This document shows positions 2,126-8,744 of a DNA stretch of 17,361 nt, one piece after another. Made by a program: the position numbers and the translations under genes. Within the stretch, counting starts at the first letter, position 1. Each line of letters opens with the position of its first letter. Under the pieces are notes generated by a model. That model was not told the DNA's origin, searched no databases, and saw nothing but the letters and a program-made list of their open reading frames with translations. Location of the stretch: UHGV virus genome UHGV-2175977; one strand, 5' to 3'. Origin of the DNA: a virus.

Positions 2126-4579
2126 TTAAAAATCAGCCTGATTCGGGATCAGTTTTTGTATAGCGGCTGTTACGTATTTTGCCTGGTGAAGAGCGTCATC
2201 CAGAGCATTATGGCGCACGCCTTCGAATGGAATTACGCTTCTGGCATTGAAGTCTGTGATTTTCCCCATCTCAACGATTGTGCGTACATCACGATCGTTG
2301 CTGTAATGCCACGGACAGGGGATGTCCAGACGTTCGTATGAGGTGCGCAAAATTGCGTTATCGAACGTTGCGCCATTACCCCACACCTGAACGAATTTTT
2401 CATCAGAGTGTTCATTGACGAATTCCCGAAAACGCAAAAGGGCATCTTTCATTTTTACCTGGTCAGTTAAAATGGCAGCTCTGGCTTCGCTGGACTGCTT
2501 CAGCCACCATTCGATGGTGCCACCATCAGGAACAGCCCCTGTATTCATTGCGTCAGTCAGGCTGATAACGATATAAAATACCGGCCCGATTTCCCCTGTT
2601 TCCGGGTCGAAGAAAACCGCACCAATAACTACTATGGGTGCATTGGTGTTGGTTCCCATTGTTTCAAGGTCGATCATCAGGTGATACCACGTTTTGCTTG
2701 TGGACTTATATTTGTGATGACTGGTTATCTTAATTAAGGGATTTGCCGTCTCGCCAGTTTCACTATCGCTGGCATGATGCTGATTGCCGCCAGAGTTCTC
2801 CTTGTTCTGATGCGCAGAGCCTTCCATTTCCTCTGGATCATTTTCCTGAACTTCAGGCTGATTCTCTTCATCGAACATTTCCTGGTATGTTGCGTCGCCC
2901 ATCACCACGCCACAATCAGGACAGTTGTCGACACCGCTCTGACCGCAGACGGTGCAGACTTTTTCCGGTTCCTGTTGTGCTACTGGTTCGGATTGTTTCG
3001 CTTTTGGCTCTTTTCGTTGCACATTTGGGCTGTTTTGTTCCGCTTTCTGGTCGTTCTGTTCCGATTCTTGCTGGTTCTGGTTCACAGAATCGCGGGTTTC
3101 AATCCCCTTCACCCATTTCGGATCATTCGGGTCGCTAATCCCTTCAGCAAATTCTCCGCCAGAGGTTGCCAGCAATTTGTCTTCGTCGACAGGATTTTGG
3201 GGCGGAATGTTTTTCCGGGATTCATGGAGTTCTGCCCGCAGTTTCTGATATTTCGCATCAACAGAATTCACCTGCGGCTGAGCATCCAGCGGCTGCGTGT
3301 CCGGATGATGTTCAGTTGTATCCGGTTCCACTGTTTCAGTCGTTGGCTGTTCATCTGCCATTGCGCCAGACGGTTGCGGTTTTTCTTCATCATCCTGTTT
3401 TCCTTCTTCTGTTACACGCTGCGGCATTGGGGCAGAGGAACGACCGCAGGCAATATCCACGATTTCCGGATCAGGGTTGGCATGATCGGTTTCGGTCAGC
3501 ACTTTATTCAGGTATTCGGTGACGCGGTGGGGCATAGCCTCTATACCAACCGGTGCTTCTTTCACGGAGGCAACCACGATGGCGCGGGAATAATCCATCC
3601 CGCCTGGCATGTTCAGAAAAGCCTTAAGGAAGACGGAGAAACAGGGATCATTTTCTGCGATAATTTCGTTAACACGTCTGGTATGTGAAGGATGCATGTT
3701 GTAAATATCCACATCCATCGAACGAGCCAGTTTTCCTGTAGCAACATCGAATGCCATTGACGCATTATCATGCACAAAACCTTCGCCGCGATCGGTAAGA
3801 ATACCGCCGCCAGCGTTAGCGCCGGATGGTGTGCGACTGATGCGAGAAACACGATTTCCTTTCATCCACTCTTTTGTAAGCAGACCACGATCAGTGTAGT
3901 CAGCGTCCAGGTATGCTTCGATGAAGGAGGTCATCAGTCCCAGGTCTGAATTTACGGGGGCGGGAAAAACTTTGTCAGTGTCCCGCACCAGTTTGTACAA
4001 ATCCCGAATCTCCAGCGGTTCGAGTTGCGCTGCTTTATTTGAGATGGCCAGCGCGGTAACGGCGGGAAGTTTTTCTTCCTGTGCGTTATGTAATGAGCGC
4101 AGTTCATCCCGCGAAACGTGCGTTACTGGTTTTTCGCCGCCGTGTTGCGCCAGCCAGCGAACAGGCAGAATCTGACCTGAAACCGGCAGAAGCATATTCT
4201 CCTCAATCTCAGTCATGTCTTCGCCATTAACATTGGTGTTGTCAGTGCTGGCTGGTTTGTCCTGCGCGGATGGCGGAGGCGCGATAAATATCATTGTGAT
4301 GCCATCTTCGCCGCCTTTTTCATACCGGTTACAGAATTCGGTATCAAACACGCCTTCCGGTGGAAGGTCATCAACAACGGGCAAATGGACGCGAACAGGT
4401 TTTTTAAAGTCGTCTTCATCATAATCGTTATCATCCATTGCGGTAATGCAGCGGGAGATGGCAACAGATAATTTTTTTGCTGTAGTCCAGTAAAAACCAC
4501 CTTTAATCCCAAGGCGTTTTCTGACTTTGTCATTTTTAGCTTCGCAATATAGCGCAAAAGTTTCTTTATCAGTGCTCAT
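2126..4579 (-). CDS. RecE-like exodeoxyribonuclease VIII homolog with C-terminal DEDDh (DnaQ-like) 3'-5' exonuclease domain
   Basis: 817-aa ORF, GAGG RBS 8 nt upstream. N-terminal and central parts ([19 protein letters not shown]..., acidic/Gln-rich linker, CxxC...CPDC) resemble recalled E. coli RecE; C-terminal ~190 aa carry motifs MIDLETMG (Exo I), [12 protein letters not shown] (Exo II), [13 protein letters not shown] (Exo III, H-x4-D). Confidence 0.8.
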
Positions 4580-4698: not shown

Positions 4699-4920
4699 TC
4701 ACCATGCCTCCGCCTTTACAGGTAAACCATCACGACCGAGGAAGACTTTAATCATGCGGTCAGTAATGCATGTTTTTGTAGTGAAATCACGGATATAAAG
4801 TTTTTGCTTTTCGATATTGTTTGCCGATGCAACATATGTCCGGCCTTCGTAAATAACGTAATCGCCGGGAGTGACGCACTGGCGTGGTATTTCATCGGTT
4901 CCGAAGTGATGAGCAATCAT
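4699..4920 (-). CDS. Kil-like small protein (candidate host cell-division inhibitor, KilR-like)
   Basis: 73-aa ORF with strong AAGGAG RBS 6 nt upstream; same size and position as kilR in the Rac early-left operon; identity by recollection only. Confidence 0.5.
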
Positions 4921-4965
4921 AATAATCTCCTTAATAATTTGTGATATGAAGGAAATTCCAGAAAA

Positions 4966-5517
4966 CTATTTAATACTCAGCAACTGCTCGACGGTCATAT
5001 TTTTAATTGCGCCCCGGTTTATGAGAGTCCATCCCTGCTTTTCCAGATAAAAACGGAAAGTATCCAGAGTACAGACCAGTGCGCCATCAGGAACGGTTTC
5101 GGTGAATTTGATGTAGCCGTGTTCGTCGAAGCGGATAACCAGGGTGCGGCCATCACCCGGGATTATTTTGTCAGCGGGTGTGGTGTTATTCCGGCGCAGT
5201 TCTTCCTCCATGCGGTCGAACTCGGCAATGTAGGCTTCCTTGAATGCAGCGGCCTTTTTGCCGGTGAAGCCCATCACCAGGAAAACGAAGCCGTTTTTGG
5301 TGATTTGGTAGGCATTGTAGGTATTGCCACGGTGCTCGAATTTAACCCGCGAAAAGTTGCTGGTTAAAAAGCGTTCAGAACATTCGAGGGCCTCTATTTT
5401 TTGAACAACATGGTGATGCTGCTTGCCGAAGAATTCTGCGATCGCAATAGACGTAGTGACAGCGCGACCATTTTCAATGGTTACGTCAGGGTGAGAAAGG
5501 GTAAGGGTAGTAGCCAT
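4966..5517 (-). CDS. Rha-family phage regulatory protein (antirepressor-like)
   Basis: ORF track gives 4966..5814, but an intrinsic terminator lies inside the 5' extension. ATG at 5517 has a GAGGA RBS 7 nt upstream and starts the conserved MATTLTLSHPDVTIENGRAVTTSIAIAEFFGKQHHHVVQKIEAL block (Phage_pRha-like). Confidence 0.6.
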   Translation of the reverse strand: MATTLTLSHPDVTIENGRAVTTSIAIAEFFGKQHHHVVQKIEALECSERFLTSNFSRVKFEHRGNTYNAYQITKNGFVFLVMGFTGKKAAAFKEAYIAEFDRMEEELRRNNTTPADKIIPGDGRTLVIRFDEHGYIKFTETVPDGALVCTLDTFRFYLEKQGWTLINRGAIKNMTVEQLLSIK

Positions 5518-5684
5518 GATGGCATCCTCAAGTGTTAAGTTAATTAACTCACCACCGAGGCTTTCCACGACCATAAGGGTGGCGAGACGTACAGGGGTGG
5601 AAATACCGGTCACTCGAGAACCCGGCCAGCCTTGCAGCTGCCCTGCACGCCCCACCATTATCTGAATGTGGCTGTGCATTACGC

Positions 5685-5709
5685 ATAAAAAAACCGCTTC
5701 GGCGCGGTT
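5685..5709 (-). terminator. Intrinsic terminator for leftward transcription (tL-like)
   Basis: On the minus strand AACCGC-gccgaa-GCGGTT hairpin followed by TTTTTTTAT (plus-strand 5685-5709). Confidence 0.5.
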
Positions 5710-5964
5710 ATGCGCTCGAGTAACTTTCGGGTTTCCACGCCCGGCACCCGTTTTATGAGGTGCAGGTGCACTATAATTCCACCCGTACTGGTTTTCAATA
5801 GCTACATTCAACATTTTCTCTTACCTTTCATCACCGAAGTGAACTTTGTTGATGCGGTACCTGGTGCCTCCAGGCGACGTTAACCAGTCTGTGTCCGGCG
5901 CACGCACTCCACCTCACCCGTGGAGAAGTCATTAATTACCAACCCTGGCCTTGTTGATTAGCTG

Positions 5965-6183
5965 TTAACGCGGGTATGTAATCATTCTGGCAATGCTTAA
6001 TGCCGCTGCTTTTTCCAGCCTGGTGATATCCTGCTCCAGAGCTGACAGATTTTCAGCCTCCTTAGCCCTGGCTTCATTGGCCCACTTCAGGTCCTGCGCA
6101 GCCTGAATTTTCCGGCGCATCCACTCATAAAGTTCATCATCGGTATAGTCTGGCGAGATGATGACGGGTTCTCGCTTCTGCAT
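5965..6183 (-). CDS. Hypothetical small early-left protein
   Basis: 72-aa ORF, first gene downstream of the leftward promoter/operator cluster; charged, predicted helical (…KEAENLSALEQDITRLEKAAALS). Confidence 0.45.
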   Translation of the reverse strand: MQKREPVIISPDYTDDELYEWMRRKIQAAQDLKWANEARAKEAENLSALEQDITRLEKAAALSIARMITYPR

Positions 6184-6366
6184 ACTGATTTCTCTCAGTG
6201 CTGTTTCCCCTTAACGCCGGGGTAGCGGAACAAAAACCTGCTGCATAGTTAAAGTTAAACCCTGCCGTCATGTTCATACGCCTCGGGCTGGCTACTTAAC
6301 CCCTGACCACTGCCTGGTAACTCGAAGTATTGCCCTGCGTTCTGTGGGGCGGGGTAGGTTGGCAGG

Positions 6367-6413
6367 TATATAATGTACTTTGCGTTCAGTGTTGTAAAGT
6401 ACCTTAAGTACAT
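6367..6413 (-). promoter_or_regulatory. Leftward early promoter (PL-like) with three GTAC-core operator-like sites
   Basis: Minus-strand -35 TTTACA (plus 6393-6398) and -10 CATTAT (plus 6370-6375), 17-nt spacer; ATGTACT at 6373-6379, AAAGTACC at 6396-6403, AAGTACAT at 6406-6413 overlap the promoter elements. Confidence 0.4.
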
Positions 6414-6487
6414 TTTGTGTGTAAAAAAATGAGATGGAAAAAGTGAAGCACAAACCCGGAGGGGGGCGCTACCGGATTTATGCTGGT

Positions 6488-6907
6488 TTAAGAGGCTTTT
6501 TGTTTTTTCTTTCGTGCTAACTCTTCGTAAATTGCATTGTACTTCTGTTTTTTCTCCTCAAGAGTTTTTAAAAGTTCATCTGTCTCACTGTCAGGGAGCT
6601 CGTCCAGAAGGTCAATGATGATTTTTTGTCTTGGATTTAACTCCTGATAGAAACGTACCTGTCCACTTTCTTCTGTATCCTCTCCCAAAAGATAGGTTGG
6701 TGTTGTTCCAATGAGTGTTGCTAATTCCCTTAATTTCTCTCGGCGAGGAATTGTTTCGCCATTAAACCATTTGCTAACCGCTTTTGGTGTTAATTTCATT
6801 CGACGGGCAATTTCTGCCTGCCTTCCATGTTGTTCATAACCAGCGTTTTCACAGGCTAGCGCAAGCCTACTGGCGAACTCTTTACGCGCTTTATCTTCAT
6901 GAACCAT
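6488..6907 (-). CDS. Prophage repressor, XRE/CI-like HTH, no peptidase domain (RacR-like)
   Basis: 139-aa ORF divergent from a cro-like gene; HTH segment GRQAEIARRMKLTPKAVSKWFNGETIP; charged coiled-coil-like C-terminus; no Ser-Lys protease motif. Confidence 0.8.
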   Translation of the reverse strand: MVHEDKARKEFASRLALACENAGYEQHGRQAEIARRMKLTPKAVSKWFNGETIPRREKLRELATLIGTTPTYLLGEDTEESGQVRFYQELNPRQKIIIDLLDELPDSETDELLKTLEEKKQKYNAIYEELARKKKQKAS

Positions 6908-6927
6908 AAGTTCAATGATATTCGCTC

Positions 6928-6962
6928 TTGAATGTACTGTCAGTTCTGTTATAGCATGTACT
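6928..6962 (+). promoter_or_regulatory. Rightward early promoter (PR-like) with two ATGTACT operator-like repeats
   Basis: -35 TTGAAT (6928-6933), -10-like TATAGC (6950-6955); ATGTACT at 6932-6938 and 6956-6962, 24 bp apart, within the 79-bp divergent intergenic region. Confidence 0.4.
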
Positions 6963-6986
6963 CAAAGTTCACATTGTGAGGGTGAT

Positions 6987-7241
6987 ATGAACCAGAAAAC
7001 ACTTGAAGATGTAATCAAAACTGTTCGCGTTTCTGTTGTGGCCGACGTTTGTGGTGTCAGCCAAAGAGCAATCTACAAATGGATGGATAACGGAAAATTG
7101 CCTCGCACAGAATATACCGGCGAAACAAATTACGCTGAAAAAATCGCTCATGCATCAAACGGATTATTTTCTGCCGATGCAATTTTAACTATTGGCAGAA
7201 ATAAAACTACTACGAAAAAGCTGATGGGAGTTGATTCATGA
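6987..7241 (+). CDS. Cro/YdaS-like HTH regulator
   Basis: ORF track starts at 6915; ATG at 6987 has a GAGGGTG RBS and gives MNQKTLEDV... with HTH VVADVCGVSQRAIYKWMDNGKLP; divergent from repressor. Confidence 0.7.
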   Translation: MNQKTLEDVIKTVRVSVVADVCGVSQRAIYKWMDNGKLPRTEYTGETNYAEKIAHASNGLFSADAILTIGRNKTTTKKLMGVDS

Positions 7242-7663
7242 AAATCAAGCATGAGCATATCCGCATGGCGATGAATGCCTGGGCGCGTCCGGATGGTGAA
7301 AAAGTTCCGGCAGCTGAAATAACCAGGGTTTATTTCGAGCTGGGCATGACGTTTCCTGAGCTGTACGACGACAGCCATCCGGAAGCCCTGGCCCGTAATA
7401 CCCAGAAAATTTTCCGCTGGGTGGAGAAAGACACCCCTGATGCGGTTGAAAAAATTCAGGCGTTACTACCAGCGATCGAAAAGGCAATGCCGCCTTTGCT
7501 GGTGGCCAGAATGCGTAGCCACAGCTCAGCCTATTTCAGGGAGCTGCTGGAGACACGAGAACGGCTGGTGAGAGACGCTGATGATTTTATCGCAGTGGCA
7601 ATCGCCGGTTTCAATCAGATGAATCGTGGTGGCCCGGCGGGTAATGCTGTGGTGATGCACTGA
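7238..7663 (+). CDS. YdaT-like (CII-like) early regulator
   Basis: 141-aa ORF, start overlaps upstream stop (ATGA); positional equivalent of ydaT after racR-ydaS; assignment positional plus recollection. Confidence 0.5.
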   Translation: MKIKHEHIRMAMNAWARPDGEKVPAAEITRVYFELGMTFPELYDDSHPEALARNTQKIFRWVEKDTPDAVEKIQALLPAIEKAMPPLLVARMRSHSSAYFRELLETRERLVRDADDFIAVAIAGFNQMNRGGPAGNAVVMH

Positions 7664-7733
7664 CTGGCAATAGTTATACCGGATCGCTTTCGGTAGTACG
7701 TGATTAAGGAATTCGGTATCAGAAGAGGCAATT

Positions 7734-8744
7734 ATGGCCGCATTACCATACATGCAACTGTACATCGCTGATTACCTGGCTGACACCATGCATTTATCAG
7801 CAGAGGAGCACGGTGCGTATTTGTTGCTGATGTTCAATTACTGGCAAACAGGAAAGCCAATACCTAAAAACAGGCTGGCAAAAATTGCCCGTCTGACTAA
7901 TGAGCGATGGGCTGATGTGGAGCCATCCTTGCGGGAGTTTTTTCACGATAACGGCGATGAATGGGTGCATCTTCGGATTGAGGAAGATCTGGCATCAGTC
8001 AGGGAAAAATTAACCAAAAAATCAGCCGCCGGAAAAGCATCTGTTCAGGCCAGAAGAAGCAGAAAGGAAGCAGATGTTCAAACAAAACAAGAGAGAGATT
8101 TAACAGGTGTTCAAACAAATGTTGGTGTGGTGTTTGAACATAACGCAAACACAAAGGCAACTAATAAAGATACAGATAAAGAATTAAACCCCACACATAA
8201 CGCGCGCGTGCGCGAGAGTGCTCCGACCAGTGAACCGAACGGTACGCCGTTGCAGGTGGCGGAACCTGAATTTCCGGATGGCCTGAGTGAACCCATCGGG
8301 AAATTTCCGATGGCCGATGGCTGGCATCCGTCGCTGGATTTTCGACGACGGGCTGCGTTGTGGGGAGCGGCTTTGCCGGAACCGGAATTTACACCTGCTG
8401 AACTTGCCGCCTTCCGGGATTACTGGATGGCGGAGGGGAAAGTGTTCACACAGGTTCAGTGGGAGCAGAAATTCGCCCGTCACGTAAATCACGTCAGGGC
8501 GCAGGTTAAACCAGTCAGCAAGGGGGTGAACCATGCAGCAGCACCAGGTGGCACCGCATCACGGGCAGTTCAGGAAATTCGGGCAGCACGTGAGCAGTGG
8601 GAACGTGAAAACGGATTTATCAGCGACGGAAACAGCCTGGAAGCTGTGGGAACTCATGGGGGAGGTTTATTCGGACCGCTGGACCCGGAAGAACGGGGCC
8701 GCACCTTCGAAGCTCTGGATTGCACAGATTGGCGCGATGACTGA
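7734..8744 (+). CDS. Replication initiation-associated protein, DUF1376/YdaU-like with DnaT-like C-terminal region
   Basis: 336-aa ORF; N-terminus MAALPYMQLYIADYLADTMHLSAEEHGAYLLLMFNYW fits recalled DUF1376 motif; first gene of replication module. Confidence 0.7.
   Translation: MAALPYMQLYIADYLADTMHLSAEEHGAYLLLMFNYWQTGKPIPKNRLAKIARLTNERWADVEPSLREFFHDNGDEWVHLRIEEDLASVREKLTKKSAAGKASVQARRSRKEADVQTKQERDLTGVQTNVGVVFEHNANTKATNKDTDKELNPTHNARVRESAPTSEPNGTPLQVAEPEFPDGLSEPIGKFPMADGWHPSLDFRRRAALWGAALPEPEFTPAELAAFRDYWMAEGKVFTQVQWEQKFARHVNHVRAQVKPVSKGVNHAAAPGGTASRAVQEIRAAREQWERENGFISDGNSLEAVGTHGGGLFGPLDPEERGRTFEALDCTDWRDD

Follow-up and report, generated by a model that had tools for sequence, protein, structure and literature searches.

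The sequence examined is an Escherichia coli prophage, UHGV virus genome UHGV-2175977 (17,361 nucleotides, nt; this whole stretch is referred to as the window), whose positions 4734–12198 are identical to E. coli strain 135 (NZ_CP080260) and make up a Rac-like prophage region; kil, ydfC, ydaT, and a pair of cI/cro-like genes are found in it. Here we focus on two co-directional replication genes of this region, an initiator-like gene (A) and a lambda-P-like helicase-loader gene (P) that opens within it. A preliminary description of the window had noted that the two genes overlap out of frame by 212 nt, and the open reading frames (ORFs) on the plus strand confirm both this overlap and the continuation of the A frame to a TGA at its far end (Table 1). 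P codons begin at positions with n%3 = 1 and A codons at positions with n%3 = 0, which places P in the +1 frame relative to A. Read from 8533, P starts with MQQHQVAPHHGQFR..., and A ends in ...TFEALDCTDWRDD.

Table 1 Features of the A–P gene pair in the window (pLDDT: predicted local distance difference test; aa: amino acids).
Feature	Position	Strand	Basis or remark
Gene A, replication-initiator-like, 336 aa	7734–8744	+	ORF list; same coordinates in RefSeq for the identical sequence
DUF1376 domain of A, residues 5–87	7746–7994	+	Pfam PF07120, 91 bits vs cutoff 30.1, E = 6e-26
DnaT DNA-binding domain of A, residues 191–257	8304–8504	+	PF17948, 62.9 bits vs cutoff 25, E = 2e-17
A linker, disordered and variable; bears the ribosome-binding site and ATG of P	8505–8561	+	pLDDT <50
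Shine-Dalgarno sequence of P, AAGGGGGTGA	8520–8529	+	Duplex -14.8 kcal/mol
Gene P, lambda-P-like helicase loader, long form, 221 aa (most likely the true extent)	8533–9198	+	Pfam, conserved ATG and ribosome-binding site, homologues, AlphaFold
Probable dual-coding overlap, 212 nt: A residues 267–336, P residues 1–70	8533–8744	+	P in +1 frame
Overlap half I: A frame constrained; P is a variable disordered N-tail (residues 1–34)	8533–8634	+	
Predicted conserved helix of the A tail, RAVQEIRAAREQWERE; family motif ASRAVQxIxxAxxxW	8562–8609	+	AlphaFold, fragment residues 92–107
P helices 1–3 (predicted), residues 29–46, 48–54, 60–67	8617–8733	+	AlphaFold pLDDT ~80
Overlap half II: P frame constrained (helices 1–3); A is a disordered acidic/Gly-rich C-tail	8635–8741	+	
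Internal in-frame ATG, Met42; start of ~180-aa database forms	8656–8658	+	Weak ribosome-binding site
Internal in-frame ATG, Met69; RefSeq start of 'replication protein P', 153 aa	8737–8739	+	Start chosen by RefSeq and its annotation pipeline PGAP
A stop codon TGA	8742–8744	+	

Protein A carries, above the curated Pfam cutoffs, both domains that define DUF1376/DnaT 'replisome organizer' initiators. The earlier label 'YdaU-like' therefore holds for its N-terminal DUF1376 domain and misses the DnaT domain, which AlphaFold models with a pLDDT of 80–90. P belongs to the Phage_lambda_P family on two counts. First, it matches the Pfam profile (PF06992) with 54 bits against a cutoff of 26 (E = 2.1e-14), residues 60–188 (from nt 8710) aligning to profile positions 32–161 of 162. 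Second, the P-family profile matches the solved structure of lambda P (8v9t; E = 1.2e-6), positions 57–188 corresponding to lambda P residues 70–202; in this match, P residue ~62 pairs with lambda P residue 70, and Met69 (8737) corresponds to about Met82. P is thus a putative loader of the host DnaB helicase. Protein databases hold P versions of 221–223, ~180, 153, and 140 aa, with homologues of the longest class reaching down to 50% identity, and the core conserved throughout the family (motif AWxLWExMGEIYSxRWxxKNG) begins at about residue 35. Judged by the Pfam alignment, the match to 8v9t, and this core, the similarity to lambda P does begin upstream of 8737, as the preliminary description had stated.

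The comparison drew on 32 genome loci and 80 viral contigs that encode P relatives. In 27 lineages, with P identities of 42–96%, the A frame extends 149–224 nt beyond a conserved P-frame ATG; these lineages come from Escherichia, Salmonella, Citrobacter, Enterobacter, Klebsiella, Pluralibacter, Phytobacter, Kluyvera, Scandinavium, Pectobacterium, Erwinia, Buttiauxella, Samsonia, and Limnobaculum, and the relatives in which both frames of the overlap are intact include Rac-SA53, the PPompW/Stx2 phages, phage pPE4, and at least 23 prophage lineages. Across the overlap, the A and P frames are open in all of 20 non-redundant lineages, and the third frame contains two to six stops in each. The position of the A stop and the sequence of the A tail are common to the 27 lineages, some of which have wholly different N-terminal domains in A, and the helix motif of the tail is still recognisable in the most divergent of them. 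By this comparison with orthologous modules—a check that the preliminary description had proposed—both frames are kept in diverged relatives, and the arrangement, retained by relatives from a range of Enterobacterales, is, at the level of sequence, a genuine long gene overlap.

A few records stand apart. In Leclercia adecarboxylata NCTC13032 (L027, ~2938–3647), the copy is frameshifted and the frame jumps from P to A inside the overlap (AWHLWQVMGGNILEPVDAEEW...); a 333-aa protein (P0058) is a deletion fusion in which A, up to about residue 225, continues as P from about residue 105. The two are clearly products of decay. The phage deposited as Actinobacillus phage vB_Apl-pPE4 (PP818812.1; L003) has a module that matches the E. 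coli prophage at 92.6% nucleotide identity, a closeness unexpected for a Pasteurellaceae host; it may be an E. coli-derived phage or a contaminant.

The two frames divide the shared DNA between them. We estimated ratios of nonsynonymous to synonymous proportions (pN/pS) pairwise by the Nei–Gojobori method for ten representatives. In the DnaT domain, where A alone is coding, the A-frame pN/pS is 0.39. In half I of the overlap it is 0.57 for A and 0.89 for P, and in half II 1.6 for A and 0.22 for P; in the P-only sequence downstream, P stands at 0.21 and the non-coding frame in A phase at 2.24. The synonymous proportion (pS) in the P frame is 0.42 in half I, 0.62 in half II, and 0.70 downstream. 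On these estimates, purifying selection is clear for A in 8533–8634 and for P in 8635–8741, and for the second frame of each half the signals are only indirect: stops are avoided, base usage is biased, and polymorphism is lowered.

The predicted structures match this division. The predicted A helix in half I has nine invariant residues (T89, S91, R92, A93, V94, Q95, I97, A100, and W104 in A-fragment numbering), and past it AlphaFold gives a disordered acidic/Gly-rich tail (8610–8741, pLDDT ~40). P residues 1–27 are predicted to be disordered (pLDDT <50) and are followed by helices 1–3, all of which lie before Met69. In these models the ordered part of each protein would thus be written over the disordered part of the other: the A helix over the P N-tail, and the A tail over P helices 1–3. 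The 'low-complexity tail' that the preliminary description saw in the A frame of the overlap fits the disordered end and does not fit the conserved predicted helix.

Polymorphism among close relatives was scored as segregating mutations per possible mutation in 61 distinct E. coli-type sequences without indels. Taking all segregating mutations together, the overlap holds 44 of 627 and its flanks 287 of 2040 (p = 1e-6), so that the polymorphism of the overlap is half that of the flanks. Changes that are synonymous in A and alter P are rarer in half I (12/74) than in A-only sequence (45/140; p = 0.014), and conversely those synonymous in P that alter A are rarer in half II (14/59) than in P-only sequence (112/289; p = 0.037). 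Changes nonsynonymous in both frames amount to 3 of 155 in half II compared with 46 of 612 in P-only sequence (p = 0.009), and changes creating a stop in the other frame to none of 24 in the overlap compared with 18 of 79 in the flanks (p = 0.011). This synonymous-constraint test, also suggested in the preliminary description, favours dual coding.

We consider it probable that the A–P junction is a genuine, evolutionarily maintained dual-coding overlap in an O/P-type prophage replication module. The first of the two options left by the preliminary description, namely that both frames are translated, is supported by the conserved start and ribosome-binding site of P (see below), frame-wise selection, stop avoidance, and halved polymorphism. 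Several points weigh against this interpretation. Translation of both frames is something we infer from sequence comparison, and the role of the A tail and the coupled expression proposed below are drawn by analogy from lambda O and P. RefSeq, through PGAP, starts P at 8737; Met42 is nearly invariant, so that an additional internal start at 8656 may exist. The lineage-based p values assume independence, pS values of 0.6–0.7 are near saturation, and relatedness is partly left in the sample. The other adverse points concern the far end of A. There, in half II, the A-frame pN/pS exceeds 1, and entropy at 4-fold degenerate sites is barely lowered (1.38 compared with 1.54 downstream, p = 0.12), both of which suggest that the last ~35 A codons may have little sequence-specific function. 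The A motifs of this half (GGNLFEPLDxEERG...DxxDWxDD) were rejected as independent evidence of function because they are largely dictated by invariant P residues (MGEIYSxRWxxKNG and WIAQIG) one base earlier. In two lineages (L021 and L030) A ends 10–11 codons past the anchor position, making the extreme C-terminus dispensable there.

Together with the predicted disorder of the tail, these points allow for a reading in which the last ~35 A codons (8635–8741) are a tolerated run-on without a function of their own and A ends functionally with the helix at 8562–8609. We hold this to be unlikely. A never stops within the first 10 codons past the anchor and continues for at least 22 codons in 18 of 20 lineages, whereas downstream a stop falls in this frame roughly once per 20 codons. 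Further evidence comes from stop-opportunity sites, that is, sites at which a T at the end of a P codon, with AA, AG, or GA opening the next codon, would give A a stop. Three of them (-6, -2, and +3) lie ahead of the A stop in every lineage; T occurs there in 0 of 45 cases, compared with 145 of 544 (27%) at downstream equivalents. Over all 80 stop-opportunity sites T is likewise absent, and G, which yields Glu, Gly, or Asp in A, is found at 59 of 80 compared with 92 of 399 non-T bases (23%; p = 1e-17). We place weight on the 0/45 count and the base bias, since a wider count of 0/224 is partly circular, the overlap ending by definition at the first A stop. In addition, the Ser47 codon of P is TCG in 13 of 13 lineages—the sole zero-entropy site among 71 4-fold degenerate sites—and its bases code the Glu of 'FEP' in A. 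The low polymorphism of half II, both for P-synonymous and for doubly nonsynonymous changes, also speaks against a mere passenger.

The beginning of P also bears on the extent of the overlap. An in-frame TGA at 8527–8529 makes 8533 the earliest possible P start. AAGGGGGTGA ends 3 nt before this ATG, and its GGGGGT core (8522–8527) lies 5 nt before it. Its pairing with the tail of 16S ribosomal RNA (Table 1) is stronger than the 1st percentile (-10.0 kcal/mol) of a background drawn from random positions within A genes, which substantiates the strong ribosome-binding site claimed in the preliminary description. The ATG has an equivalent in 27 of 27 lineages, each after a GGAGG-like site, and the mean pairing energy is -10.2 kcal/mol; the corresponding means are -5.4 at equivalents of 8656, -2.7 at equivalents of 8737, and -2.65 in the background. 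The A dipeptide that spans the ATG occurs in seven forms (HA, NA, HV, HE, YV, NG, and DA), all of them xAT-Gxx, and the invariant Gly of the A linker (A-fragment residue 79, nt 8523–8525) is coded inside the core of the ribosome-binding site, arguing that the start signals rather than A residues are conserved here. Despite in-frame indels, the P frame is open from the 8533 ATG to the conserved core and helix 1 in 20 of 20 lineages, for which the null expectation is 0.22–0.34 per lineage (from a +1-frame stop density of 0.042 per codon in the bodies of A genes). Stand-alone P homologues in Erwinia (L025, 2992–3618; L028, 2974–3543) have more than 200 nt of intergenic sequence upstream and no overlapping gene, yet they retain 'P[AV]WxLWDxM' and start 16–32 codons ahead of the Met42 equivalent.

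Were P to start internally, at 8737 (153 aa, sharing with A only the 8-nt ATGACTGA) or at 8656 (180 aa, 89-nt overlap), the sequence upstream would be untranslated and the long overlap merely apparent. Annotation leans this way: for the identical sequence RefSeq places the P start at 8737, the Rac-SA53 and pPE4 records do so at the equivalent position, the PPompW/Stx2 records begin later still, and P versions of 153 and ~180 aa are numerous in databases. When prokaryotic annotation shows a long co-directional overlap, moreover, the cause is usually a mispredicted start codon (PMC2478687), and the 8656 equivalent is an ATG in 26 of 27 lineages. We nevertheless judge an internal start to be improbable. 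The ribosome-binding sites given above are weak at 8656 and at background level at 8737; 4 of 27 lineages have CTG or TTG in place of the 8737 ATG, and L022 has CTG in place of that at 8656. The conserved core, the Pfam match, and the lambda P alignment all start upstream of 8737; helix 1 spans Met42; the upstream P frame is open in every lineage; and helix 1 is conserved in sequence in the stand-alone Erwinia homologues, where no second gene could account for this. In addition, lambda P lacking residues 9–86 loses both replication initiation and toxicity (PMC3640518). P thus most likely starts at 8533; Met42 is unlikely to be the main start, and the RefSeq start at 8737 is probably a truncated annotation. 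A short lambda-type junction (1–20 nt) was not found, the overlap from 8533 being 212 nt; ATGACTGA at 8737–8744 would fit such a junction, but 8737 is unsupported as a start and this reading is not backed.

Programmed +1 frameshifting into an initiator–loader fusion protein is suggested by the frame relation, since P lies in the +1 frame of A over ~70 codons and any shift there would join A to the P core, and by fused A–P proteins present in databases. We rejected the latter as evidence because the fusions inspected are products of deletion (P0058) or of other rearrangements (P0025 and P0113) and have no frameshift junctions. P also has its own conserved ribosome-binding site and ATG, and the RNA fold around its start (8480–8600) is unremarkable (z = -0.68), giving no sign either of structure masking the ribosome-binding site, as in translational coupling. 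No slippery motif was seen on reading 8533–8744, without a systematic scan. Such frameshifting is very improbable. As for the second option of the preliminary description, a recent frameshift or lost stop that extended A into P in this prophage, the unusual overlap length and the degenerate copies elsewhere (L027, P0058) might hint at it, but we reject it as having next to no likelihood, because the same intact overlap with a closed third frame and a common A stop and tail is kept in 27 lineages, including ones with different A N-terminal domains, because the A frame is under selection over 8533–8634, and because P identities of 42–96% exclude that the relatives are one recent clone.

Returning to the dual-coding overlap, we propose the following scheme. 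A would be an initiator or 'replisome organizer', made up of the DUF1376 domain, the DnaT domain, and the tail, and translated through to 8744. P would initiate at the 8533 ATG through its own strong ribosome-binding site, placed in the disordered linker of A. In lambda O, specificity for P resides in the C-terminus, and the A tail, with its helix and acidic end, may by analogy be a loader-specific adaptor. Since tail and P are written on shared DNA, they would be inherited as one recombination unit, and the origin-binding parts of the initiator could be exchanged. A start 212 nt inside a translated gene would probably keep loader expression low and tied to that of A; the lambda loader is toxic on over-expression.

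An adaptor role is suggested by the way in which the tail and P stay together when other initiator domains are swapped. The tail occurs in at least six architectures—DUF1376 with DnaT, HTH_36 with DnaT, an unknown N-terminus with DnaT, Phage_rep_O without DnaT, HTH_36/DnaD_N, and DUF1376 without DnaT—and in every one of them it is fused to the initiator and overlaps this P subfamily. By contrast, where a DnaT-type initiator accompanies a lambda-type P (P0192, L117), its C-terminus is ...PHWNSPEGWKDFL and its overlap with P is 4 nt, so that in the lambda-type subfamily a different P goes with a different initiator tail. Most hits of a protein search with the A tail as query were partial proteins, and the lambda-type DnaT initiators were nearly all that it added.

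Further loci with lambda-type P (L117/L118, 2501–4050; L032–L035) encode DnaT-domain or O-like initiators, with overlaps of only 4–17 nt. The C-terminal aromatic/acidic peptides of these initiators are PHWNSPEGWKDFL, DTHWNSPEAWEEFL, and NNTDWIDGVFDENSF.

More tentatively, and with doubts of our own, we suggest that the 212 nt might code for two surfaces that bind each other, the C-tail of A docking onto the N-terminal helices of its cognate P. If so, recombination could not separate the two surfaces, origin-binding domains could swap freely with the tail/loader pair staying matched, and the overlap would be a physical mechanism by which the two sides of an interaction interface are made to co-evolve and to be inherited together. 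It would also be a hard-wired analogue of the lambda O' read-through product (see below).

The neighbouring genes are more conventional. Upstream, A adjoins a YdaT-family gene (7238–7663) that overlaps a cro-like HTH gene (6987–7241) by 4 nt (7238–7241), the usual short coupling type and a contrast to the 212 nt downstream. A DUF977 ORF (9195–9650) follows P, its first ATG overlapping the P stop (ATGA, 9195–9198). This ATG is probably not the real start, because RefSeq uses a GTG at 9228 that is preceded by GGAGG (9219–9223) and Rac-SA53 has a Met at the equivalent position. Farther downstream, the RefSeq annotation of the identical sequence places a RelE/ParE toxin and ParD antitoxin pair on the minus strand (11222–11784), in the prophage early region.

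Part of this picture was already known: the protein families and the O/P-type module are described, and the 221-aa and 336-aa proteins are in the nr database. Our literature searches found no description of a conserved, mutually interleaved co-directional overlap of ~200 nt. A survey of 338 prokaryotic genomes recognised no co-directional overlap of more than 60 bp as real; the longest genuine case measured 56 bp (PMC2478687). Because real overlaps of this length are so rare in prokaryotic annotation, a well-supported and widely conserved ~200-nt case can serve as a reference example of genes written over each other with order and disorder interleaved. The finding has a practical side as well, since a loader annotated from the internal ATG, as in RefSeq and several phage records, loses ~68 residues including three predicted helices. 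This probable annotation error is widespread, given that megablast matches parts of the module in 1909 of 5426 complete E. coli genomes. Finally, the comparison makes a short tail, always associated with this loader subfamily, the likely initiator–loader adaptor, and the overlap suggests how mosaic prophages keep initiator tail and loader matched.

Lambda O–P is the closest general parallel. In both systems an initiator gene is followed by a loader gene of the Phage_lambda_P family, co-transcribed downstream of a cI/cro-like switch, and the part of lambda P equivalent to the overlap, covered by the inactive 9–86 deletion, is essential (PMC3640518). The lambda initiator consists of Phage_rep_O and the lambda O C-terminal domain, in contrast to DUF1376 and DnaT here, and the present P is shorter than lambda P (221 compared with 233 aa) and has a different N-terminus. 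Lambda-type pairs (L117, L033, L034) overlap by 4–17 nt rather than 212 nt. For lambda, an early report described a product, O', that arises by read-through and runs on into the region coding for the P N-terminus in a different frame (PMC3640518); O' needs read-through, whereas here the initiator reaches into P in a hard-wired manner.

The DopC and DopE genes offer a second parallel. DopC, which has the DnaT C-terminal motif, is encoded beside the lambda-P-like DopE, and both derive from the replication module of a phage (Brezellec et al. 2017, PMC5509034). As here, a gene for a DnaT-motif protein adjoins a lambda-P-like gene of phage derivation; DopC and DopE differ in being domesticated chromosomal genes and not part of a prophage module, and PMC5509034 makes no mention of an overlap between them. 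The two stand-alone Erwinia homologues may be domesticated loaders in the DopE sense. Both sit beside host genes with no initiator gene upstream: read by eye, the neighbour in L025 is a 297-aa TtcA-like tRNA thiolase (SGGKDS and CxxC motifs) and that in L028 a large membrane transporter.

The gene neighbourhood itself—kil, ydfC, dicA/dicC-like repressors, ydaT, and a DUF1376 gene—is shared with the ydaU–ydaV region of the Rac prophage and with Rac-SA53. Rac-SA53 also has the A–P pair, at 93.6% identity and with the 212-nt double open frame; its record differs in annotating the second gene from the 8737 equivalent only. In the Rac prophage of E. coli K-12, we take ydaV to be a DnaC/IstB-like gene rather than a P-like one.

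Long overlaps are tolerated in phages, and long out-of-frame cases include lambda Rz/Rz1 and, in phiX174, A/B/K and D/E. These resemble the A–P overlap in using one strand and two frames, with an ordered part written over a disordered or weakly constrained one. They differ in involving embedded genes or lysis and scaffold functions, whereas here two neighbouring replication genes extend mutually into each other.

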